DNA of 22,398 bases, taken from positions 262,925 through 285,322 of the forward strand of contig NW_004797970.1 of assembly GCF_000002075.1 (NCBI RefSeq). Reading direction: 5' to 3'. Position 1 is the stretch's first letter. Each line of letters starts with the position of its first letter. Source of the DNA: Aplysia californica (lineage: Eukaryota). The position numbers were made by a program, and so were the translations under genes. Positions 1-18,835 of the stretch are shown here, piece by piece. Under the pieces are notes generated by a model that ran no database searches, had not been told where the DNA came from, and saw only the letters and a list, made by a program, of their open reading frames with translations.

Positions 1-819
1 ATCCATGATCTAATATCTAGATCTAGATCTCAATCTCAAGGAGATTAAACGTAGAAGACGCATCTTTCTGATTGGCTGCTAATTTTAGTACTGTGATGTC
101 ATCACTTCCTGGGATACCCACATGGAACGACGTTTTCGGTAACTTTTTGGATTCCTAGATCTAGATCTAATACTTGGACGTGATGGAAGATCCTAGAATG
201 TTGATGCTTAGAACAGTAAGATTAAGAACGCTGATGCTTGTTGAAATAGAAACACAGTAAACACAAAGACAACAAATCGCACGAAAATTGCCGTAAAGAC
301 GCGGGAGGATTAGATCTAGATCCACCCCCCCCCCCCCATACACATTCTACATCACTAATATATATATAAATAGATTGCCCTGATCTATAGAAAAAACAAA
401 AAGAACTTCAAAGCTACAGATTATAATTTATGGGACTGTTGGTCAGTCGGGCGGAGGAGAAGAGAAAAAACAAACTGTCTGGGACCGGGATCGAATCGCT
501 CCTAAAATCATTGCATGACTTCAAATGCAGACGCACTCTGTATTCGGCCATCAGAACTTCCGAGAGCGAGAGGTAGGTTAAGCATCATATACATAGACAC
601 TTCCATCTTTGGTGCCATGCGGTTGGCTATACTTAGAATCTAGAGATGTAGTCATGTGATCGGAGGGGTAGTACCTGGTCTGACATCAAACAAGATGGGC
701 GCCTTACCTAAAAATAGTTTGCATCTTTCTACGTTTAATCGCATGTGGTGGTCATTCGTTTCTGACAACTGACGTATAAATGGAATGGCCCCCAACAGTT
801 CAATTATCATACTATTCTA

Positions 820-885
820 TATCTAGATCTAGATCTAGAGTCGTCTAGAGTTCTAGATCTAATATCTAGATTTTAGATCTAAGGG
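820..885. repeat. (TCTAGA)n-derived microsatellite, imperfect. Shorter runs of the same motif lie at 17-35, 155-175, 310-322, 990-1010, 1035-1050, 1085-1105, 1305-1330, 3091-3125 and 6379-6400.
   Basis: This is a direct read of the sequence. Confidence 0.85.
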
Positions 886-1518
886 AGTGTATACAGACCC
901 GGTAACCGGGAACAAAGTCACAAAGTATACAGACCCGGTAGTGGAACTCTTTTGTGATTTTGGAAAGTTTCAAGCGCCCTCTTGGCTCTGGGTAGACCTA
1001 GATCTAGGTTCTTCTATATATCTATGGCCTAGGCTAGGTCTAGATCTAGACAGACAGACATAAATCATTGATCTAGTTTCGAGGCTAGCCTAGATCTAGA
1101 TCTAAATTCTAAATGAAGATTGTGGATGTCTTTTCGTTGAACGATCGTTTTTCCTCTGTTTTGGAGATGGAGGAATCACAATTTGAAGAAAAGAACAATG
1201 TCATAATTTCTCTCGAGCATTCATCCTCTCTATTTCTCTCTCTGTCGCTCGCATTCTCTTTTTCTTTGTTCGTCTCTGTCTTTCTTTCTCCCCACCTATT
1301 TTCCACTAGATCTAGATTCTAGATCTATATCTTTCTCTCGTTCCCTCCTGCCAACTGGGGCATGTCATACATTTTGCTAGCACTTCCCCCTGCTCTCTCT
1401 CTCACACACACACACTACCGGGTCTGGGCGCTGAAACTTTCCGAAATCACAAAAGAGTTCCCTTACCGGGTCTGTATACTTCGTGACTTTGTTCCCGGTT
1501 ACCGGGTCTGTATACACT
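886..1518. mobile_element. Foldback or MITE-like element with roughly 100-bp terminal inverted arms (886-990 and 1418-1518) and a microsatellite-rich interior
   Basis: The left arm agtgtatacagacccggtaaccgggaacaaagtcacaaagtatacagacccggtagtggaactcttttgtgattttggaaagtttcaagcgccc is about 95% identical to the reverse complement of 1418-1518. Each arm contains a direct subrepeat GTATACAGACCCGGTA x2 and a palindromic core cccggtaaccggg. The interior has (TCTAGA)n runs and a CT-rich tract. No target-site duplication is evident. Confidence 0.6.
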
Positions 1519-1639
1519 TCGATTTCGATAGAGAGGAGGATCATTTGAATTTCCCCCAAGACATCATACCCATAATAAATTATACTCTACAGAGACAGAC
1601 AAGATATTGGGATCTGCTAATGTTCAAAGAGGCCAAGAT

Positions 1640-1766
1640 ATCTAGATTCTAGATCCAGATATCTAGATCTAGATCTAGATCTAGATCTAGATCTAGACTT
1701 AGAATCTAGATGTAGATGTAGATGTAGATCTAGCCTACCTAGAATCTAGATCTAGTTCTAGATTTA
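1640..1766. repeat. (TCTAGA)n/(AGATCT)n palindromic hexanucleotide microsatellite with degenerate (TGTAGA)n tail
   Basis: This is a direct read of atctagatctagatctagatctagatctagatctagacttagaatctagatgtagatgtagatgtagatctag... Confidence 0.9.
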
Positions 1767-3481
1767 CCTGTTGTACATATCCACCATCATTTCCATTTCA
1801 AGTTCATTTACAAATTTCACAGCAGCATCGCTGAGTTCTGGCTGGGCAGCCATTTTGACACTAAATATGGGATAAGCTGGAGTTGTGTGAGTGACAAATT
1901 TAAGTCACTGGCACAGCGACAACAAAACTCCGACAATAAATGTCGAGATTCAAGTCTTAATTTTCTTCGAACTTTCCAGCGTCCTTCCCACTTGTCACTG
2001 TTGCACCATGTGTGTCTTGTAAACAAAAGTCAGAGTCACTTCCCTTTTGACCTCTAGAGGCCCGACCGCCGGTTGGTCAGATCTTCATGAGAATGAACGC
2101 TAAAGTGGGGGAAAAATATGATAACAATAATCAAAATAACAAAACAAGGCAGCGCCTCAAGTTATTAGGATGTTCTCTTGTTTGCAAAACAAAATTCGTC
2201 TAAAATGTCCAACAAATTATTCAGTACTTAATCTAATCATACAGCTCAAGGGTCCACATATTTAGCTCTGTTGTATGAAGTGCTCGTAACTTTTGTAATA
2301 AAAAAAAAAAGAAAGAAAGTAAAAAGAGAAGCAGCGTTCATTTTGCTTGTCCTGTAATAGTTGTCGACAGTTTGTTTTGAAAAAAATAACAAAACAGAAC
2401 GACCTACTAAACTGTTAAATAGATAATGTGATTCTGTTTATATTAACAGAAAAACGTGTTTTTGGCTTGGATCAAGGACCCCTCGACTTGACATAGTCTA
2501 AAGGCTTCTAAAACATGCTTTCGCTGAACTGAACAATAAATACAAAAAAATACTAGTCACTTATCATACAAAAATAGATCGGTCTGCCTAGAGGGTAATT
2601 TTTTTTTCTTCAGAAACTGGACGATTAATGGAGAAACATAATGTTCATCCTACTTCTGATTTTGGTCATGCCATCAGAGACATGCCATTTAGTCAAGTGT
2701 AGCCAATCAACGAGATCGACACAATTGTAAACAAAACAAATCACACGACCAATCGTTGACATGGAAATTCCTTCTTCCCCGAAACAACTTAATATTACCT
2801 AATTTCGATTACAGCTGTTCACGAGGAACGCTATGCTCGAGATGACCAGGCATTCACTGACCCGTCCGTTATCTTATTATAGAATCTATGTGACTGAGAG
2901 TTGTTGGATCCCACAAGACAGATTGTAAACCTCAACTCATGTTAAATGTGATAGCTTCTAATCGACATTAGGCCTAGTTTTGCTTGTTAAAGGTAAGAAA
3001 ACTTACAGTTTGTCGCTTTTCGGGCTTTTTTTCTTCTTTCTCTCTCTTTTAAAAACAAAAAACGGACCTCTTCCCTGTCCCTGTCATCTAGAATTCTAGG
3101 TCTGGATCTAGATCTAGATCTAGATAGCATAGCTTGAGAAGTTGCTGTATTGTAAACGTTATTATAAAGTGCTAAAGTAAAGATTAAAGTTAAAGGGTGA
3201 TTCACTCATCACTGATTGTCTTGAAGAATTCCCAAAAATGGTCATTATCTATCATAACTTAAGAATATGTGGCCATTGCCAATGGGCAATAGTTGAGCAG
3301 GTTCAATTGTACTTCACTTTCACTTTCACTACTTCACTCCTTTCTTGTACAATTCTACAGTTTTTCCACCCATGTCTGATCAACACTTGGTGATCTAGTA
3401 GTTCTGTTCGTTAAAGTCCATGATCCATTTGTTTTTAGTTTTTACATCCAGAGAAGAAATCCAGAAGTCTTGATGGAAAGT

Positions 3482-5656: not shown

Positions 5657-5705
5657 GGGAGTGTATACAGACTCAGTAACCGGGAACAAAGACACAAAGT
5701 ATACG
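5657..5705 (+). repeat. Solo partial copy (about 48 bp, 4 mismatches) of the 886-1518 foldback arm
   Basis: The string gggagtgtatacagactcagtaaccgggaacaaagacacaaagtatac at 5657-5705 matches gggagtgtatacagacccggtaaccgggaacaaagtcacaaagtatac at 883-931. Confidence 0.7.
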
Positions 5706-7638
5706 TGTCACGACGTGGTGGAATCAGGCACTCGTCAATTTTTGGCTATGTAGAGTTATGGGTATCACCTGAAAGCTTGTTCATTTGCTTTGCATTCAAT
5801 TTAAAAAATATCCATCTTTCTTGAATAGAAGTTGAAATACTTGCGATTGAAGGAGGTGGGGTCGCCCGGTTTCAGAGGTAAAATTAGGGAGAAAATGGCG
5901 GCCAAAGGTTGGTAACTTCAATGGCCTAAAGCTGAAAAATATATATTTTGTGCCTTTAACTCATTCGCTATGCCGAGCCGTTGGGGGCGGCGCGGCTAAT
6001 GTGCCGTCAGTACGCTAAGCCGCCCCCGGCGGCTCGAGAACCGATCTTCAATATTAGTTTAGTAAAGATTCTATTCCAATCCGCATATCGATGTTAAAAT
6101 AAAGGTCATGATATAATGTTGACTTTCGGGTCAAGCATTTCCACTGAAAATCGGAAGTTTAGATTCAGTTTTGAAACGCGATTTCGTAGTTTATTCGACT
6201 TTGTTTTATCGCGATGCCAAAATTATAGCCCGGACACCAGTCTTAGTAATTTTACACAACAAAATCTATCATTATTTTGCCCACTAAAGAAGTGTAGGAC
6301 TCTTTTTTATAATATTGATACGATTGGACTCATATTGCCAATGCACTGTTATTTAGAAATCAATATTTTTGAGTGCCAGATCTAGGTCTAGATCTAAATT
6401 GTCAAAATATGTTTTTCTTCCCAAAATCAATACTTTATGATGAAATTACCCAAAAGATGCCACTCAAGACATGTATAGGTTTATTCCAAATGCAATTCTG
6501 AATATTTCCATATTAGATACGAGTGGGTTTTTATCTGTTTGTGATCGTTTTTCAAGATTATAAAAAAAATTTTTTTCCAATATCGGATGTTATGATCCAA
6601 ATGTACAAATATTATGGAATGTATGTGAATAACTGCAAACTTTTCGATATTTTCCAGTTCTATATTCATTTATGGTTGTTGTGATATATCATTTGACTAG
6701 GTGCAAGCCCTGAGTTTCACCAAAGATTTAAAAAATTTTATTTTCAAATTTTATCCGCATCCAATCAAAATTGTGTTGCATAATGGCCTCTTACAGGAAC
6801 CAAAGTTGAAAAATACATAAATGAACTTTACAGATGTATTCTACAATCCATACTGAAAATATTGGTATATAATATGTTGATATTTATTTGAATTTGTCGC
6901 CCCAAAGACCTTTTAACTGCCCACTAGTCATCATCTCATTCGCCCTCCCGAAAAAAAATTAGTCCGCAAGCCGAAAATAATACGTAGCGAATGAGTTAAT
7001 CAACGTTTGTTGAGCCAAAAAATAAAAATTCAACAAAATTGCCAAACTGACAGAAAAATGCCTGTTTCTTCAATTTCACTAATTTTGACGAGCACCTGAT
7101 GTCACCACTCTGCCTCACATACAGTATTCAGACTCGGCAGGGGAAATCTTTTGTGGCATTACAAAGTTCTATCTGACTTTTTTTGGGGCCATTTTGAGTT
7201 ACTAAGACCATGGCCATGAGGTCAGAGACCAAATGACAAATACTCTTTCAGAAATTCTGCTACATCAAAATCATAAGCTATTCAGAGTTGTTATATCAAG
7301 AACTGCATTCAAGAAAGCTTGACATGTTGTGAAACTAAAACTCTGATGTCAAATTTCTCAAAACTAGGTACTGAGCTGGGGTCCGAGCAGCTCAGGTAGA
7401 ACTTTGTAATTCTAAAAGTAGCATTGTATAGCACTTGTCCTGCTAATTTTTATCTGCTTTACATGACATTGACTTTTTATATATATATATCTGTAGCAAA
7501 ATGAAGTTTTTTTAATTGTTATTTTTTTCTGAACTGATATTTAATTACTACTACTAAGCCTAAATGCATTGTAGTTTTCACGCTGTGGACCATTCTGGGG
7601 GGTTTCAGGAGGACATGCCACCCTGAGGTAAAATCTGT

Positions 7639-7659: not shown

Positions 7660-9207
7660 TGTTACAGGGACTGTTTTATTCCATAATTTAATGTTTTACC
7701 AAATCAGCTTTGAAATTTTTCTTGAAAATAATTGACTTGCGACAGTTTTAGTGGCTACCTGATCTGCAGCAAAAATATGGCCATTTGACCCTCAAGGAGT
7801 GCATCTCTGTGCGGGAGTGAAAGTAAAAATGTGACCTTACATTTTTCCATCCTTGTAAACTTAACCAACATGTACATCTGCCTTGAGATAAGCCTGAAAC
7901 AGAGGACTCATTATTGCATATGGTACGAATGTCTAAGCCTAGTTTCTACTGTTTGGGTATATCTAAATATGTACTATGGGAAGAGGTGTTGAGTTCCTAG
8001 TTTGGTTAAATTTATCAGTTACAGAAGTTCGAACCTGTTGACTTTGTATTTTGTATAGAATATCATAGTTAGTCGTGGTTGTGGTTAGGGTTTGCGCTGG
8101 ATGTAGTAACAATTTTGTAAAAAAAATTTGAAGGGGAATTGCATCAAATTCATTTTCTGTGGGCAGTCATAGTCGTACTAAGGCTCCACGTTCAAGTGCC
8201 CACGTTGAAGCTCTTTCTTTGTTCTTCAAAAGAAAAATTGTTGAACGCAATAACTTCAACTTTTCTCCTGTAGGTGAAGTAACTTGAATTATCTTCGTGT
8301 TTCTTTGGAAATCCAAGTCGCAAAACATGTTATATTGCAGGCCATTTTCTTGCGAATTTTATTTCAAATACCAGACGACTCCTACCTCCTTCAGTCACAA
8401 ATATATTGGCTTTTATTCAAGATAGATGGGTATTTCTTTTTAATCAAAGAAAAGCGAATGAACTGTCTTTAACATGATACCAATAACTCTGTGTGCCAAA
8501 AAATTGATGAGTGCCTGATTCTGCCTTGTCATGACACAATATTTTTGTTATTTTATGTGTGAGATGCAACAAAAAAGTAACTCAAGTGTTACAAAATTAG
8601 CAATTTAAACTGATCTCATTTTCATATTTCAAAAATACATTACCTCATTAGTAAATAGGCATACACTGATTTTAAATATTAATTAGAAGCCGATATATGT
8701 AAGCTTCTTAATTAAGTCACCCCTCTGGTATTCAGTTCTGAAAAATCTGGGTTTGAAGTTGGAAATTTAAATTTTCTCCAATACATGTGATGATTTTAAA
8801 AATTAACCCCCCCCCCCCCCTTTTCTTTTTTTTTAAAGCTTAAAAATGAAAAATGTAAATCAAAGTAACTCATTTTGGCAGAAAAAAGTTTGTTTTAAGG
8901 TTTAAATGATTACATTAAACTTTCTTTTGCCTCTTGAGCAATATGTTATATCTCAGCATAATTTAGCTGGTCTTTCTTTTCCCAAGAAATAATGAACCTG
9001 TTCTATAACTGTGTTAAAAAAGACAGGAAGGAAAGAAAGTGTAATCAGCTGGGTATTCTCTTGCAATTAGGATGTTTTATTCATTTACTTTTTCTTACTC
9101 TGTTGATTTTTTGTTTTCTAAAGCATCTGTCAATTTCATGTCACTAACTTTATTGTTTCTTTCAACTCAGATTCTGTGTATTTGTGCAAGAAACCAGTGG
9201 AGGCAAC

Positions 9208-9782: not shown

Positions 9783-12062
9783 GTATGGAAAGTTATGTTT
9801 TTTGTTTAAGAACATGTGTGTAATATAATCTTGATATTGTTCGATACCCTTACTTTTTTGCTGATAATTTATAATCAGAGACTCTAAAAATAATACAGTA
9901 AATGTTTTTAATACTCTCTTTATAGTTTTTGTCTTTTAAATGTCAACTGTTTTTATCCTGGCCGTACCCCCACGGAATCTGTACCTGTCCTGGGGCCTCC
10001 GCCCCATATAAGACCGCCCAATATAAGATGGAATTCGGGCTGTATTTCTTACATTTACTCTCAGATTTTAAGGAAATTTGACAGTTATGTTAAAAATTGA
10101 ATATAGTATCTGAAAATGTTAGTGGTATTGCACCATGTAGATTTTATGGTATATTCCACCATCCAACTTGCCCTGATTGCCTCGCCTACAACGTCCCCTT
10201 GGATTTATAGATCTACCCTACCCATCGGTACTGCTCGAATTCCAGCACTGGTCCCTTCACCATGATCTGAATCATTATTAGATGAGTCTAATTCCTGTTT
10301 GTTATCGTACACAATGGAGTTTACAGCACTTGATTCAGAGTCACTTTCATCAAATTAGTCTCATTCCCCCTCACAACCCAGTGACACTTCAAGAAGTACT
10401 TTGTCAGTTGTGAATGTGCGTTTTCAAGACATTTTTCATGCTTCTACACCCATCAGAAACAAAGAAATCACTGTACATTGGAAAATTGAAGTATTCAAAC
10501 TGAGCTAGCATCGCTGTATTTGTGTATTTTGGTAATTACAAGCAGAACTAGCTGTTTCACGTGACCATATAGCTGTTCAGAGTTTACTCGTAGCCCGGTC
10601 TGGTCCTCGTTATGAGTACACACTTAGCTGGGATAAAAAGAATTAAGGAAATTAATGTCCAACCCTCTGTTGGCTACAAAAGAAGAAAAAAAGTTTATGA
10701 AGTCTGAAAAGATAACTGAACTTTTTAACTTACAAAAATAACAAAATAATGTGACATGTTGGGAACACTGATATATTTTTGCGGAGATTTTATTTGCTTT
10801 TGCTTGAACAGTCGATTAAATGGATGTTGGAGGATTCAGCTTCTTAAGCATATATATACTTTTTTTATATTTGGCGTAGTGTGTTGCTTTGATCTTGTAC
10901 ACAACTACCACAACAAGAGAGTCTTTGTGTCAATTTTTTTTTCTTTTCTTCTTTCTTTACAAAAAAAATCTCATGGTTCCATGTATCATCCTGAAAACAA
11001 CTGCTACCACAATTGTTAACATAATTATTTATCACTGTACTGGATACAACATTGCATATTTCAAGAGAAGGTGACGCCTGTCACACAGTGCTAACAGAAT
11101 GTTGCAAAGTGTAGTAGGCTTGATCATTCACAGAAAAGTCACATTTGGTACTGGGAAGATGAAGCCTGTGCTTCAGTTTAAAGATTGAATTACAAATTTA
11201 AAAAACAACAACTTTGAAATCTGTTGTACCATTTGTATTTTTTCATGAATGTTTTTGTTCTTTGTTGCTAGTTTCTGAACTGTAGTATTCAGAAATGTTT
11301 TCCTTTGATCTTTTTTCAGGAACTAGTTTTTTTATGATGAACAGAGAAAAAATCACTGTGCTATAGCTTGTTTACTTTCGTCTGGATTAAATGAATTTTA
11401 AGTTGTTTATTAATTCAACAATTCACATGTGACTTTGAATGACAATTCATGGCACAGTGACCAAGAGAAATTTTTTATAAAAAAAGAAATCTTGATCTGG
11501 TAAGAAAAACGTTTCTTTATTTGGTCCCTATATTAAGTACCACTCTTTGGGTGCATACATAGGACCACCACAATAATGATTTACAGTAACTTAGCCTTCA
11601 AATCGGTCATTTTGAGACAGCGACAACACGCTGCCCCCACATTTCAGTGTAAGCCTGTAGATTGCAGTCTATCTAGACATTTCCATTTGAGTCTCAAAAA
11701 GTGATCACCCGTCTGTTGGACTGCGTTTAAATGTGGTGTTGATAAAATTAGGTCAACTATTTGATGTTGTGGGTGAATGTTATAGATTCCATATAACTGT
11801 TCTTTTTCCTGCTCTCGGAAAATAATAAAGAAAATGTGTTAAAATCTTAGTTTGCAGTGACCTGAATTTAATTTTATTCATCCAACTTCTAGACCCACTT
11901 GCGGAAACCTGAGAAGATTGAACAGAGTGATTTGTTTTTATTTTGTTTTACCTGGAGACAGATGCTAGTGAACAAGCTATAGTTGAATGATGTCTGGTTA
12001 TCACATTAAGGATGTAGAACCCAGGAGAAAAATTGTCTGAGTAGATAAAATGTTTTTTCCAG

Positions 12063-12318
12063 GAAAATGACTGTGCCAAGAAGCCAATGCATTGTCAGTT
12101 CTGTGAGCTGAGTTTCCCGAAAGCTGATTTGGCGTCTCACTTTGACTACTGCGGTAGCCGTACAGAGTGCTGCCCCCTGTGCCAGCAGTACATCATGCTC
12201 AAGGACATGGTTCAGCACGAAAACTCGGGATGCTCCTACCCTGAGCCGAAGCCCGCTGCCGCCCCAGCCAGCAGTAACACAGATCCCTTCCGCATGGAAG
12301 AACTTCACTATATGCTGG
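12063..12318 (+). CDS. XAF1: XAF1-like coding exon 3 (TRAF-type zinc finger: ENDCAKKPMHCQFCELSFPKADLASHFDYCGSRTECCPLCQQYIMLKDMVQHENSGC...)
   Basis: The acceptor is tgttttttccag| at 12062 and the donor is atgctgg|gtaact at 12319. The motif DYCGSRTECCPLCQQYIMLKDMVQHENSGC matches the human XAF1 motif ESYCGSRTELCQGCGQFIMHRMLAQHRDVC. Exon 2 joins exon 3 to give the same spacing as human (MEKHM-ENDCAKKPMHCQFC versus LEFHKANECQERPVECKFC). The exon ends with 1 extra nt (g). Confidence 0.85.
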
Positions 12319-12883
12319 GTAACTAACACAGTTCACTCTTTGAGAAAAGATTTACTTCATTGAGGATGCATATTCTGGTCATTTGGCAACTTTTTAAGAC
12401 ATGCTGTATCCACATAGATTTTTTCAGTTCTGTTTAATCTGAAACTTGAAAAGGGAGGCAACAACATGCATATTGTGATGCATCTGGCTCATGTTTCTGA
12501 TTTGTGTATGATGGTTTGAAATGTGCCACATTATTGCTGTTGGTCTGCTGCTGATCAGACATGTGATTCCCCTACATCCCTACAGTGTTTATAGCTGACG
12601 CTTTTTACTTTCTGGCTCTTAAAATTTTCTTCCTGACTAGATTTGCTTTTCCACGTCCTTTGCTTTTAGTCTTCAGTGACTGGTGCTTTTTTGGTTTGCG
12701 TGTAGGATTCTATGATTAGTCAATAAAAAAGAGTTACTGAAAATAATTAAAAGCTCTGGGCAAGTTTTCTGTGTGCTTCTCACAAGGGTTCAGTGGGCAC
12801 TGTCACTTAATAGCAAATACAGCAAAACTTTCAGTCTTTTGAATAAGGCAACAATGACTCCGGTCACTGACTAATCTTCAGCC

Positions 12884-13100
12884 TCTGTGGTGTAGTAGTT
12901 AGGCAGTTCGCTGTTGCAGGCAGGAGATTTGGGTTTGATACCTGACCAGGGACAGTTTTTTATTGAGTGTCTTGGTCTTTCTGCTTGGATACTGTATCCC
13001 TCTCAGCCTGGGTTGGCCCTGACAGGCAGGGTAAGAAGCCCACCTCTTAAATTATATAAATTTGTGTCGATGGGGCGCTAAAATACCTACATTAAAACTG
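12884..13100 (+). mobile_element. Second, unrelated tRNA-derived SINE-like element in intron 3
   Basis: It has a tRNA-like head ctctgtggtgtagtagttaggcagttcgctg...gggtttgatacctgaccagg (A-box-like TGGTGTAGTAGTTAGG and B-box-like GGTTTGATACC), followed by a short body ending ...gtcgatggggcgctaaaatacctac. It has no similarity to the 18316 family. Confidence 0.45.
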
Positions 13101-13460
13101 ACGGATCAGGTCTACTTTTTCTTTTTCTGTTCGGTTTGTACAGTGCTGACTTGATTGGTCTGCATGCTTCTCTTTCCTCACGCAAATGAAAGGTGCATGA
13201 ATTTTATGTCAGAATTATCCAATATGTCTGAGTGCCTCAGTCTAAATGACACTCTAAAAATATGAGTTTGAAAAGTATGTTGCATGTTACAGAACAGTAA
13301 AAAATTTTTTTTTAAAATGGTACTTTAATAAATGTTTTTGGACTCCTTTCAATAGCATTTCTAGTTCACCAGGTGTAAATAATGCTTTTATTTTTTATGC
13401 TCCAGTCACCATTGTCAGTTGAGCAGAAATTGTAGCAAGACTCTTTGTTATCCTTTGCAG

Positions 13461-13664: not shown

Positions 13665-14070
13665 GTAAGATTTTAAAGAAAATTGTCAGAGCCTGTTTAG
13701 AAAGAAATTCTATAAGATCTTTTGTGTTTTGTGATCGGGACTTTGTATTACTTGGCTTAAACCATGTTTTGTTGTTGTTGTTGTTGTTTTCAAATCCCTT
13801 TAGCTGCGAGCATTTCGCTCTTGGCAGCACTATGCCTCCCCTAAGTAACCACATGTCCTTGTCATCTGGTCAACACCGGAGTAAGTCGGTAGGTGTGTGT
13901 AGGAGCCTGCGTCGAAGAACTGCTTGGTTTGGGCAGTGAAGGAGAAGATGTTCAATGGTCTCCTCGTGGTAGTCACAGCGTCTGCAATGGGGTTCCCACA
14001 TGGGATTAATTCTGTTTATGTGCTTCTTATGCTTTGTTCTTAAACTTACATTGGGAGATCTTTGCATATA
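13650..14070 (-). mobile_element. Non-LTR retrotransposon ORF2 C-terminal remnant (zf-RVT-like motif), antisense within intron 4 of the XAF1-like gene
   Basis: The minus-strand ORF 13870-14067 encodes ...NPMWEPHCRRCDYHEETIEHLLLHCPNQAVLRRRL, the C-x2-C...ET.EHLL.HCP...R zinc-binding motif typical of LINE reverse-transcriptase C-termini. A (GTT)n run at 13776-13795 lies downstream. Confidence 0.6.
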
Positions 14071-14306
14071 TATCGTTCATCCAAGAAGCCACTTATTAAT
14101 TGGACCTATGGTTCAAACCTGCTCTAACAACCACCTTTTGAAGACAGTCACTTTTACAAACGACCACTTTTTGCATTAAAAAAATTTAGTGTGTCCTAGA
14201 CATTCACTTGTCTAAGACAAACACTTTTCTCATTGTCAATGAACCGTGGTCTTATTCAGTTGTGACTACTTTTTTGTTATTGAATTCTTACTGATTTTCT
14301 ATCAAA

Positions 14307-14778: not shown

Positions 14779-15000
14779 TCAGAGATCTTCGTCTTGATCT
14801 CGCTCCCGGGTGGATCTCAGCTTTCCTCTCTCTCTCTCCTTCCCTAAGGGGTTCTTTCTTATACTTTGTCTTGTCGTGATGTGGTTTGGCTTTCTGAGTG
14901 TTTGTCCAATCCATTGCCATCTTCTTCTCTTAATCCCTTGTTGTTTGCTTCGCCTTAAAAATGCTGCATTTCTGATAGTGTCCTGCCGGTGGATTTTCAT
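14779..15000 (-). mobile_element. Possible degenerate retrotransposon ORF fragment (basic G-K-R-x-R-G-R/K motif region)
   Basis: The minus-strand ORF 14779-15000 contains ...RKNPLGKERERGKLRSTRERD..., which loosely resembles the WNPQGKRKRGRP...TWRR motif seen in many invertebrate LINE proteins. The match is weak. Confidence 0.25.
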
Positions 15001-15363
15001 GATCTTCCTCAGGCAACCATTAATGAAGGACTGTAATTTATTTATGATCTGCTTTGTTAGTTGCAGTGTTTCTGATTCTTACAATAATGAATTTTTTACA
15101 TTTGTACTGAAAATCGTGATCTTTGTACTTGTTTTGATAAAAGCCTGCCTCCTTCTAAATGATCTAAATTAGGTGGATGGGACGTAAAAACTTCTGCATC
15201 TAAAAAATAAAGAAGAGTCAGGCCACTATATTATCTTTTGTTCTCCATGCATACAGTTCCTACAGATACAGTTGGGTTTGATATGTGATGGAGACCTGGT
15301 TTATACTAAGGTAGCTCCAAGTTGTTGTTTTTTCGCCTTCTGGTCAGTTTTGAGATACTTTAG

Positions 15364-15404
15364 AGGGCCTATTACATGTACAGGCCGACTGGACAGGTTT
15401 CTGG
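15364..15404. repeat. Left arm of a 41-bp inverted repeat (gggcctattacatgtacaggccgactggacaggtttctgggcc); its partner is at 17661-17701
   Basis: The reverse complement of 17661-17701 is gggcctattacatgtataggccgagcagacaggtttttgac. That gives 34 of 41 matches, including a 16-nt perfect core. Confidence 0.65.
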
Positions 15405-15469
15405 GCCGTATGGCCAATTGTAACGTGTAATAAGGTATGCGGCTCAAACCATAGGCGAAGACCCTGTGA

Positions 15470-16850
15470 ATAGCCGGCCCGCCAGATGTCAAGAACCCAC
15501 AGCCGCTGCCTTTTCAAGCAGAATACAAAAAACTAATAGATAAATACCCCGGGCTCTTCACAGATGGCTCCAAAAAAGACAATGAAGTAGGCGCCGCAGC
15601 CCTATCTTCCAACAGTACACACCAGAGGAGACTCCATCCTGAAGCCTCCATTTTCTCTGCGGAGGCCACTGCCATTGACATGGCACTGGACTCTGTAGAA
15701 AATTCTCCTAACAAATCTTTCCTTATCCTTTCTGACTCTCTGTCTTGCATCACCTCACTCACAAACTACACACTCTTACACCCAAAAATAGTTAGGCTAC
15801 AACAGAAAATCCACACACTATCCGAAACAGGAAAAAACATCATGTTCGCATGGATACCCAGCTATGTGGGCATCCGAGGAAACGAGCAGGTAGACAACCT
15901 GGCGAAGAAAGCTTCATCCCTTCTGCTGGGATCAACGACATGGCACTGGACTCTGTAGAAAATTCTCCTAACAAATCTTTCCTTATCCTTTCTGACTCTC
16001 TGTCTTGCATCACCTCACTCACAAACTACACACTCTTACACCCAAAAATAGTTAGGCTACAACAGAAAATCCACACACTATCCGAAACAGGAAAAAACAT
16101 CATGTTCGCATGGATACCCAGCTATGTGGGCATCCGAGGAAACGAGCAGGTAGACAACCTGGCGAAGAAAGCTTCATCCCTTCTGCTGGGATCAACGACA
16201 AACACTCTCCCATAGACTGACTTTAGAAATAAAGTAAAAAAGTACACCTCCAGTCTGTGGGAGAGCCACTGGGAAAACCAGAAAAACAATAAACTATATG
16301 AAATAAAACCCAAACTAGAACAGCGAAATCCTTCGGACCTCTCCAGAAGAGACGAAGTCATTTTTACTCGATTGTGCATCGGACACACGGCCCTGACCTT
16401 CAAATACCTCCTACAGGGAGATGAGAAGCCGTTCTGTGTCGGATGCGACACAGATTTTACCATTAGACACATTTTAACAGAATGTCTAGACTTTGGAGAG
16501 ATCCGAAGGAAATATTATAAATGCAAGAAATTGCAGGATATTTTTTCCGTCGTTGTTCCCAGCAGAATTTAAAACTTTATAAAGGCCATTGGCCTTTATG
16601 GCCAGTTGTAGAGTGAATTTGATATTATTAAAAATTTTTATTGTTACTTAAAAGAGTTGTTTTAAATCACAAATGTATTTACACTGAATTTAAATATTTT
16701 AACTTTTTAGCATTTTAAAGTAAATTAGTTAACCAGTCGTGAAGTGAACTTTTGCTAAGGTGAACAACTTGTGTTTCGCGCGCTCATATGACCTTAGCAG
16801 TTGCGAGCGCCGTAAAACCCTATACTATACATACATACATACAAAGGATT
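15470..16850 (+). mobile_element. Non-LTR (LINE) retrotransposon, 5'-truncated 3' fragment: RNase H domain, C-terminal zf-RVT-like Cys/His motif, and AT-rich 3' UTR ending in an (ATAC)n tail
   Basis: The translated frame from about 15470 reads ...KYPGLFTDGSKKDNEVGAAALSSN...SIFSAEATAIDMALDSV...ILSDSLSCITSL...IMFAWIPSYVGIRGNEQVDNLAKKA, a canonical RNase H signature (DGS...AE...D...G.GNE.AD.LAK). Downstream, RLCIGHTALTFKYLLQGDEKPFCVGCDTDFTIRHILTECLDFGEIR matches the LINE ORF2 C-terminal zinc-binding motif. The stop is at 16570. The frame is disrupted by an internal duplication, so this is a dead copy. Confidence 0.8.
15679..16198 (+). repeat. 260-bp tandem duplication inside the LINE RNase H region (copy 1 about 15679-15938, copy 2 about 15939-16198)
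   Basis: The string catggcactggactctgtagaaaattctcctaacaaatc... at 15679 recurs at 15939. The two ORFs 15680-15958 and 15850-16215 contain the same peptide (MALDSVENSPNKSF...LLLGSTT). The junction is at gatcaacgaca|tggcactgg, with gaca microhomology. Confidence 0.85.
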
Positions 16851-17660
16851 TTCCTTGATCTAAATCCTAAATGTTATATTTTGAATTATTTTAAGGGAAA
16901 GGTATAATAATTTAAAAAATGAAAACTGATTTTAAAAGGTGTTAAAATCTATTGTTCAAGCACGTTTTGTCTTCCCTGCTATGTTTTAAAATTGAATTCC
17001 TTTCTTGATATCGATGTCAACTGAATGCCAAATTGGAAATGAATTTTCCAAGAATATATACTTTTAAAAAATCGTTGTTTTTTTAAAAGTTTGTATGCAT
17101 CTCACGTTTGTTAAACGTAAAAAGTTCATTTTCTCAAAATTATATGTCTATACCGTACCTAGCAAAATGTGCAATATCTCAAAAACTACTTGAGATATCT
17201 AAAAATTTCAAAAACCCCTGTGTTCAGCATTGAATTTCCTATAAGGTACAAGCCTTAACTCAAAATTGTCAAAATTGGACTTTTGGTACCTTTCTTTAGG
17301 CACACACACATATATGTCTCTTCGTCCATTCTCATGAAGTTTTTGACACCTTCTGGAAATGCTCTAAACTCATCCAGCAGATTTGTTTGTGATAGCGCAT
17401 TCCTCTTCAATAACCAATCCTTTGACCACATGCGACATTGTTTTCTTTGTTTTTGTTTTTTTTAAACTTGATAAAAATGGCTAAATCATCCAGAACTGTT
17501 CTGTCTGCCATGATGCACACACGTGTGTGAAATTTCACCCAGACTAGGCCTAGTGTGTAGAATATGTTGCTCGTGAGGTGCGGCATCCTTCAGATGGATT
17601 GTGGCGTGTAATACTAAACTAAGTGTCTTCGATTTCGTTTGGCTGTACGTCTTGCCTACA

Positions 17661-17701
17661 GTCAAAAACCTGTCTGCTCGGCCTATACATGTAATAGGCC
17701 C
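17661..17701. repeat. Right arm of the 41-bp inverted repeat bracketing 15364-17701 (which contains the + strand LINE fragment)
   Basis: See the left-arm entry. Confidence 0.65.
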
Positions 17702-18315
17702 TTAACCCTTTGAATTCTGGGCTCGTGGGCCTTTAATGGGTAAAACCCTGGACTTCTGAGTAATTTCCTTGATTTTTGTTAGGTATTCTTTTCTACTGCT
17801 TACTTTAGTGTTGTTCTTATCTATTTTTTTCATTTTTTGTTGTAATTATATCACATTGATGCTGCTGTTGGGTATTTGTGTTCTTTTCTGTAAACACGCA
17901 CCAAATTTAGGTTGGTATGTCATACCGATATTTCGGTACCCCAGGGTTTTTGTCGCGTTCTTTTTATACCGATATTTCGGTACAAAGGGTTCTAAGGGTT
18001 AATAATGCTTCATTTGTTCAAGACAATCGGCAGTTTGTAATTCTTGTTACATTCGTTGGATTTGTTTGTGCTATTATCTAATTATTATGTATATAGAATT
18101 TTTGTTTTAAAAAAAAAAAAGTTTTGTTAGCTTGCCATATGGCTCTATCGAAGAGAACTGGTTCTTTGTGCTTGGCATAAACATTCTAGAAATGTTATAG
18201 CAATTCAAAATTAGGTCTTATCATGTCAAATTGGAATGAACAATTCCTGTGAAAACATGTGAATGACAAAAGAGGTCAATAACATTTAACACTTGCTCAT
18301 TTCTAAGAATTGATT

Positions 18316-18835
18316 GGGGGGCTCTCGTGGCCTAGAGGTTAAGGTGTCCGCCTCTTATTCAAAGGTCCCAGGTTCGAATCCAGGTAGCAATGGAAACATT
18401 TTCTTCTCCAAAATTGTCTCCTTTCACCTCCCTTCTTTCCTGCCCTCTGACAATGTTCAGTAGTCTGCTTTCGTCTCCACGTTCTACCCCCACACCCTCA
18501 CCTCCTTTGCCCCCTCCTCTGGGTTCCTGACTCATTCTGCAGCCTTTCTACTGCTACTCCTTGGCTCCTTCTTTCTGTTGTCTTTCAGCCACACCCTTGA
18601 TTTTCTGGTAGGAAGGGTCTACACCTAGCCTTCTCAGACAAGGGCAAAAAATCTTGGAGGTCCTGTGTTCAAGTTGCGCAAGTTAAAAATCCCTTGGTGG
18701 TCTCAAATGGATAAGAGTAGGCTTCAGCCACCACTTGGGCAAAATTCGAAATTTCCTACCAACTGAAAATGTTTAATGTTTCCCGTGCTCTCACATGACC
18801 TTGTGCAGTTGCGAGCGCAGTAAAACACTTATAAA
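18316..18835 (+). mobile_element. tRNA-derived SINE, copy 1 (tRNA-like head with A box TGGCCTAGAGGTTAAGG and B box GGTTCGAATCC; body; LINE-derived 3' tail)
   Basis: The head ggggctctcgtggcctagaggttaaggtg...ggttcgaatcc and the following roughly 200 nt are 85-90% identical to the copy at 22111-22398. The tRNA cloverleaf is degenerate, with no complementary D-stem or anticodon stem. The tail ctcacatgaccttgtgcagttgcgagcgcagtaaaac at about 18790-18830 matches the LINE 3' end at 16776-16815. Confidence 0.75.

Follow-up and report, generated by a model that had tools for sequence, protein, structure and literature searches.

The block at 15365-17701 of the Aplysia californica DNA analysed here (the window: a stretch of 22,398 nucleotides, positions 262,925 to 285,322 of contig NW_004797970.1) is very probably one old, internally deleted, non-autonomous transposon of the PIF/Harbinger superfamily, located antisense within an intron of a TRAFD1/XAF1-like gene and inserted at a TTAA-type site. 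The initial annotation had recognised an inverted repeat bracketing the block and had placed first among its explanations terminal inverted repeats (TIRs) belonging to a non-autonomous DNA transposon which had captured, or been invaded by, a LINE. This explanation gains substance from the finding that the arms, together with ~150 bp adjoining on the left and ~390 bp on the right, represent the ends of a complete PIF/Harbinger element, and that the right part encodes the start of the transposase. What the copy has kept of the transposase is limited to ~65 N-terminal codons, ahead of the catalytic domain, and it is therefore understood as non-autonomous. The element is dead, being devoid of a transposase and having arms with 5 mismatches over their 40 positions; no host function is evident for it. 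Its layout is summarised in Table 1.

Table 1. Layout of the probable PIF/Harbinger element and its immediate flanks, in positions of the window.
Feature	Position	Strand	Basis or remark
Left flank TTAGA	15360-15364		TTAA/TWA-type target-site copy with one extra G; alternative reading TAG if the TIR begins at A15364
3′ TIR (left arm of the inverted repeat)	15365-15404	-	Repeat search, gapped alignment, comparison of termini
3′ terminal 147 bp (TIR and subterminal region)	15365-15511	-	Alignment to the 3′ end of L005
5′-truncated LINE fragment	15512-16845	+	Pfam domains, translation; 5′ limit placed where Harbinger homology ends (15511)
Tandem duplication, 2 x 260 bp, in the LINE fragment	15677-16196	+	100% identity, no indels
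AT-rich segment, 466 bp, 28% GC	16846-17311		Without similarity to the interior of L005
Transposase exon 1 remnant	17312-17511	-	Translation, protein matches, tblastn, DNA alignment
5′ subterminal region and 5′ UTR	17512-17661	-	Alignment with L001-L005 between TIR and ATG
5′ TIR (right arm of the inverted repeat)	17662-17701	-	Homology to other copies starts at the G of GGGCC, 17701
Right flank TTAA (target-site copy)	17702-17705		Sequence, comparison of termini

A repeat search of the window finds the inverted repeat where it had been annotated, with arms of 40 nt at 15364-15403 and 17663-17702 that match at 35 of 40 positions (88% complementary) and are spaced by 2259 nt. The earlier count of 34 matches in 41 positions around a perfect core of 16 nt is reproduced once the string quoted for it is placed at 15365 (15364 being A); with A15364 pairing to T17702, the perfect core becomes 17 nt. 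Arm matches arm by blastn inside the window at 50.9 bits (E = 5e-8), and blastn detects no third copy of the arm within the 22-kb window. As null distribution, the whole window was shuffled 100 times with its dinucleotides preserved, and the best minus-strand self-match of each shuffle was taken. It had a mean of 33.7 bits (sd 3.9) and a maximum of 46.4 bits, hence none of the 100 shuffles reached the 50.9 bits of the native arms, and the original assessment of the repeat as far beyond chance for this window is borne out. A chance match as the origin of the arms is ruled out by the shuffles together with the homology of the arms to independent copies of the element. Compared to a 36-nt reference pattern, the arms show 2 and 4 substitutions, the lower number belonging to the left (3′) arm.

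The right end of the block carries the coding evidence. From 17701 down to 17312 (~390 bp) the minus strand comprises TIR, 5′ UTR, ATG and a frameshifted transposase start: translation from the ATG at 17511-17509 gives MADRTVLDDLAIF..., a frameshift follows in an A-rich run at ~17440-17466, and the reading then continues as ...RMWSKDWLLKRNALSQTNLLDEFRAFPEGVKNFMRMDEETY. Homology to the transposase stops at 17312, beside a (CA)n/(TA)n stretch, with about 65 first codons kept. Pfam assigns no family to the 68-aa window remnant alone; its identity is established through its homologues and their genomic context. In a collection of 5.8 billion proteins, the remnant retrieves three (P0001-P0003) that are 68-76% identical and open with the same MAD..L..LAIF...RMWSKDWLLKR... 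start. P0003, the longest of the three, when used as the query retrieves 132 relatives, all of them short first-exon products and some labelled 'Nuclease HARBI1' by their sources. At the DNA level, the contigs of P0001-P0004 align with the minus strand of the window from the ATG up through the 5′ UTR to one common point, and the flanks beyond that point are unrelated. The common terminus reads GGGCCTATTA.A.GTA.AGGCCGA...GACAGGTTT, with the homology beginning at GGGCC in different flanking DNA.

A complete relative of the window element is present in L005, a 217-kb ENA contig carrying P0005 (the relatives overall derive from Tara Oceans, other ENA and Logan assemblies). The L005 element extends over 3.3 kb (9816-13127), with inverted TIRs at 9816 and 13127, each adjoining TTAA. 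Exon 1 of its transposase lies at 10001-10432 and the second exon at ~11330-12057; the joined product matches the Pfam families DDE_Tnp_4 (PF13359, 6.6e-32) and Plant_tran (1.9e-9). An open reading frame of 180 aa on the opposite strand (12621-12079) matches MADF_DNA_bdg (1.6e-18). PIF/Harbinger elements are defined by TIRs of 25-50 bp, a 3-bp TWA target-site duplication (TSD) and a DDE transposase accompanied by a Myb-like/MADF gene (PMC9179366; bioRxiv 10.64898/2026.05.26.728016). The layout of L005 is the canonical two-gene organisation of the superfamily. The concern raised at the outset, that the terminus might occur only here or only as single copies, is removed by these loci: L005 has it at both ends of a full element, in inverted orientation, and further copies carry it at their 5′ end. 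The TIRs of PIF/Harbinger elements are the sequences bound and cut by the transposase and its MADF partner, a role that the arms of the window element would have shared.

Besides these relatives, a more distant family (L011-L013) shows the same order of exon 1, DDE_Tnp_4 exon and MADF gene, with a different TIR of 46 nt; the unitigs concerned stop inside the TIRs and are thus without flanks or TSD. Around a more distant relative in L006, the search for TIRs gave no convincing pair. In L010, the TIR search was swamped by microsatellite-like repeats. Scans with TIR patterns returned 0 matches in JGI metagenome contigs (two patterns) and in GTDB genomes, and so yielded neither extra copies nor short non-autonomous relatives there. 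The family represented by L005, a Harbinger family with a MADF partner gene, occurs in a number of assemblies from metagenomes and read archives, of marine and other origin.

Alignment of the window with the complete relative accounts for both ends of the block. Positions 17705 to 17312 of the window correspond to positions 1-384 of a 3320-bp L005 stretch (73.8%, E = 1e-66), and positions 15511 to 15364 correspond to positions 3170-3317 of the same stretch (L005 12981-13128; 69.6%, 158 columns, E = 1e-17). The two alignments run colinearly and share one orientation, and the block is accordingly interpreted as a single element with its own 5′ and 3′ ends. With exon 1 of L005 as the query, tblastn recovers the transposase start in the window (80% over 41 aa, E = 1e-19), the N-terminal 14 aa being found in another frame; with the L005 MADF protein as the query, it gives no match in the window copy. 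What is missing from the window copy is equivalent to positions ~385-3169 of the L005 stretch (~2.8 kb), a span that takes in the intron and the remainder of exon 1 as well as the DDE domain and the MADF gene. Their place is taken by 1.8 kb of foreign DNA, composed of 1.3 kb from the 3′ part of a LINE, on the strand opposite to the transposon, and of 466 bp of AT-rich sequence.

The LINE fragment that the initial annotation located in the block is substantiated by the Pfam match to RNase H (PF00075, 1.3e-10; RVT_3, 3.5e-4). The plus strand at 15512-16572 encodes the C-terminal portion of a retroelement polyprotein, consisting of the RNase H domain and a Cys/His-rich tail, with the stop codon at 16570-16572. 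The LINE 3′ UTR follows and then an (ATAC)5 tail, with (ATAC)n at 16822-16843; blastn in the window shows the 3′-tail motif to recur at 18777-18829. We take the fragment to come from an RNase H-bearing non-LTR retrotransposon, tentatively of the I/Nimb/Tad-like clades. An in-frame stop and a duplication that disrupts the frame mark it as degenerate, and its RT domain is gone through 5′ truncation. The duplication consists of apparently perfect 260-bp tandem copies (15677-15936 and 15937-16196) with the 4-bp microhomology GACA at their bounds, and it shifts the reading frame. Comparison of the junctions at 15511/15512 and 16845/16846 reveals no visible TSD around the LINE piece. Because no TSD flanks the fragment, simple nested retrotransposition of the LINE is not demonstrated. 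Regarding the 466 bp at 16846-17311, derivation from a Harbinger interior that has since diverged, such as the promoter or N-terminus of MADF, was considered and rejected: Smith-Waterman scores of 12 and 15 against the L005 interior and other fetched loci are at the level of shuffles (14.5 ± 2.1), and tblastn with the L005 transposase or MADF proteins gives no match in this segment.

Two histories could lead to an element of such composition. The LINE may have retrotransposed into the Harbinger element, with a later deletion or rearrangement removing the remaining interior. Alternatively, the LINE piece together with its neighbouring DNA may have been copied in as filler when a double-strand gap was repaired after excision. 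Related to the latter, but reaching further, is the reading of the block as a transduplicating non-autonomous Harbinger, in which template switching in gap repair brought the LINE together with 466 bp of host DNA between the TIRs in a single capture, with the chimera possibly mobilised in trans and present in multiple copies. We consider this possible but tentative. In its favour, both TIRs and the subterminal regions are kept and the entire coding interior is replaced; the LINE junctions lack a visible TSD; and the DNA after the LINE tail is not Harbinger-like, as joint copying of the LINE with its genomic flank would produce. However, a LINE insertion followed by deletion yields the same picture, and only one copy of the chimera is known.

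The single-element reading has also to be weighed against a composite origin of the block, in which two independent truncated Harbinger copies, one represented by its 5′ end and the other by its 3′ end, landed close to each other in convergent fashion, with the LINE and other DNA between them. The stretch at 15512-17311 is indeed without Harbinger homology, the arms do have 5 mismatches in 40 positions and TTAA is not cleanly preserved in the left flank, all of which would suit two separate insertions. Yet the two pieces are the exact 5′ and 3′ termini of the family, arranged colinearly with matching orientation, and each of them ends at the terminal base of the family, flanked by the same TTAA-type motif. 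It would take two truncations that each kept just the outer end, in the correct orientation and 2.3 kb apart, an unlikely coincidence that makes this origin highly improbable overall.

The target site of the probable PIF/Harbinger element was examined from nine listed ends, two from the window and seven from outside, the latter spread over six contigs (L001 to L005 and L007); as L001 and L002 represent one locus, eight of the ends are independent. TTAA adjoins GGGCC at six of the nine: the right end of the window, L001 and L002, L004, and both ends of L005. The other ends show TAAA (L007), AGAT (L003) and TTAGA (left end of the window). The initial annotation had seen no obvious target-site duplication, a statement that needs revision in that a TTAA-like motif flanks the block on each side (TTAGA/GGGCC...GGCCC/TTAA), the left copy being imperfect by one extra G. 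Gapped alignment of the window ends (TTA-G-AGGGCC with TTA-AGGGCC) resolves the difference as a one-base insertion. If the TIR is instead read from A15364, the flanks become TAG and TAA, which would be a duplication of 3 bp in which one base is substituted. Judged from sequence, the TTAA flanks are compatible with a TWA duplication of 3 bp together with one terminal base, and also with a 4-bp TTAA duplication. The longer flank (A)CTTTA(A), common to L001, L004, the 5′ end of L005 and the left end of the window, looks like an extended target preference, as far as the alignment of flanks can suggest. For a single insertion, the pre-insertion site would be expected to read ...ACTTTAACCC... with one TTAA. 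That a Harbinger lineage inserts at TTAA with a 4-bp duplication and, in addition, that the window copy is a chimera which captured LINE and host DNA and was mobilised in trans ('Pack'-type transduplication by an animal Harbinger) is a combination that we regard as unlikely.

Assignment of the block to piggyBac or another TTAA-targeting superfamily, to a foldback element, or to a functional long-range RNA or DNA hairpin rather than to Harbinger is extremely improbable. TTAA is the target of piggyBac, and its presence at six of the nine listed ends could suggest such an origin, but both the remnant of coding sequence and the relatives of full length belong with DDE_Tnp_4 and MADF, and the termini are GGGCC...GGCCC where those of piggyBac are CCC...GGG. 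The initial annotation had proposed, as further explanations, a LINE inserted into a foldback element that was already in place, and a long-range hairpin. Foldback elements have inverted arms of hundreds of bp or more, composed of sub-repeats, around an interior with little or no unique sequence; the former is thus at variance with arms of only 40 nt that contain no sub-repeats and enclose 2.26 kb of unique sequence. As regards the latter, pairing of the arms over 2.26 kb would be possible, but their five mismatches are uncompensated, each arm is conserved singly at element ends elsewhere, and Rfam gives no matches in the whole window. Uncompensated mismatches and single conservation suggest that the arms are protein-binding ends rather than a selected stem.

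The surrounding gene is encoded on the plus strand and is recognised by zinc fingers of TRAFD1/XAF1 type (PF21366, 2.7e-9). Candidate exons at ~9.6, 12.1 and 20.3 kb make an intronic position of the block, antisense to the XAF1-like gene, plausible. A search with the XAF1-like exons retrieved three ENA fragments, at 64-81% identity. A tRNA scan of the whole window returned nothing. An annotation should mask the block as the degraded remains of a PIF/Harbinger element containing a nested LINE, and should not assign it a structural or regulatory role in the XAF1-like gene. The termini, together with the 3.3-kb reference at L005 9816-13127, could seed a repeat-library entry for the Harbinger family with MADF partner. 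The block is ordinary genomic debris, a routine non-autonomous element of a well-known type that will not surprise a specialist of transposable elements; mildly interesting are the consistent TTAA flank and the replacement of the interior by foreign DNA.

Placed among known systems, the element shares with piggyBac the TTAA that adjoins most ends and is distinct from it in having DDE_Tnp_4 rather than DDE_Tnp_1_7 as well as other terminal nucleotides. The nested piece resembles RNase H-bearing non-LTR retrotransposons in its RNase H domain, Cys/His C-terminal motif, 3′ UTR, short microsatellite tail and 5′ truncation, and it deviates from them as a fragment without RT domain or flanking TSD that has acquired a 260-bp tandem duplication. 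With internally deleted or MITE-like Harbingers, such as mPing and Tourist in plants, the window element has in common that the transposase is lost and the termini for recognition in trans are kept. MADF-only and short Harbinger derivatives are described in Caenorhabditis inopinata (bioRxiv 10.64898/2026.05.26.728016). All of these MITE-like forms are short, homogeneous and multi-copy, whereas the window element has one known copy of 2.3 kb that is mostly unrelated filler. The two-gene PIF/Harbinger elements of animals differ from the window copy in that the latter is without catalytic domain or MADF gene and has a foreign interior, and in that most ends show TTAA on both sides where the canonical 3-bp TWA duplication is not clean. 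The likeness to them is found in the TIRs of ~40-56 bp that start from GGGCC, in the HTH_Tnp_4-like stretch of the transposase N-terminus, in full-length relatives having DDE_Tnp_4 and an opposite-strand MADF gene, in the TTAA/TWA-type site, and in the decay to non-autonomous derivatives that keep their ends only.

A complete relative of the dead PIF/Harbinger element in a probable intron of the XAF1-like gene appears to be preserved at positions 9816-13127 of L005, a 217-kb ENA contig, and this 3.3-kb copy can serve as a reference for the family. It has terminal inverted repeats of ∼56 nt, TTAA at both sides, a DDE_Tnp_4 transposase whose two exons are separated by a (CA)n-rich intron, and, encoded on the strand opposite to the transposase, a MADF gene. 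Directly outside the terminus, (A)CTTTA(A) is common to L005 (5' end), to two further contigs with relatives (L001, L004) and to the left end of the window element. This sharing reaches past TTAA in several independent insertions and hints that the target-site preference of the family may be extended, possibly palindromic.

Inside the LINE fragment of the block, window 15677-16196 is a tandem duplication of 2 x 260 bp, its copies 100% identical and its edges marked by 4 bp of microhomology (GACA). The LINE fragment is degenerate apart from this duplication, which is either an assembly artefact or a very recent event. The LINE 3'-UTR motif at 16772-16821 (...GACCTT.GCAGTTGCGAGCGC.GTAAAAC...) is found again 2 kb downstream, at 18777-18829, matching at 83% across 53 nt and with an A-rich stretch after it. 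The downstream copy most likely marks either the 3' end of another LINE or a SINE that has the LINE tail in common. Just downstream of the block lies an exact 18-nt direct repeat, ATACCGATATTTCGGTAC (17922-17939 and 17966-17983, starts 44 bp apart), the unit of which is itself nearly palindromic.

Repeats and ORF remnants elsewhere in the window
Feature	Position	Strand	Detail
Inverted repeat	886-979 / 1426-1518		94.7% over 94 nt
Inverted repeat	5705-5899 / 8341-8537		75% over 197 nt
Palindrome	1640-1763		about 120 nt
ORF remnant	14779-15000	(-)	contains ..RRRWQWIGQTLRKPNHITTRQ..
ORF remnant	13873-14076	(-)	contains ..CRRCDYHEETIEHLLLHCP..

The first three features tabulated, which all lie in the window's upstream portion, are stronger than the block's own inverted repeat and probably represent other transposons or MITEs. 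The two ORF remnants presumably derive their likeness from the C-terminal parts of further non-LTR retrotransposons, which suggests that the intron around the block is a patchwork of transposable-element debris.

The more distant Harbinger family of the same layout is represented by L011-L013, Logan unitigs of 3045-3046 bp out of several sequencing runs, each consisting entirely of a related element from within one 46-nt terminal inverted repeat (TTCTGGCAGTTTTACCCGG...) to within the other. Since the first-exon protein has the same sequence in nine contigs, the comparison suggests a family that is young, and possibly active, in another organism.
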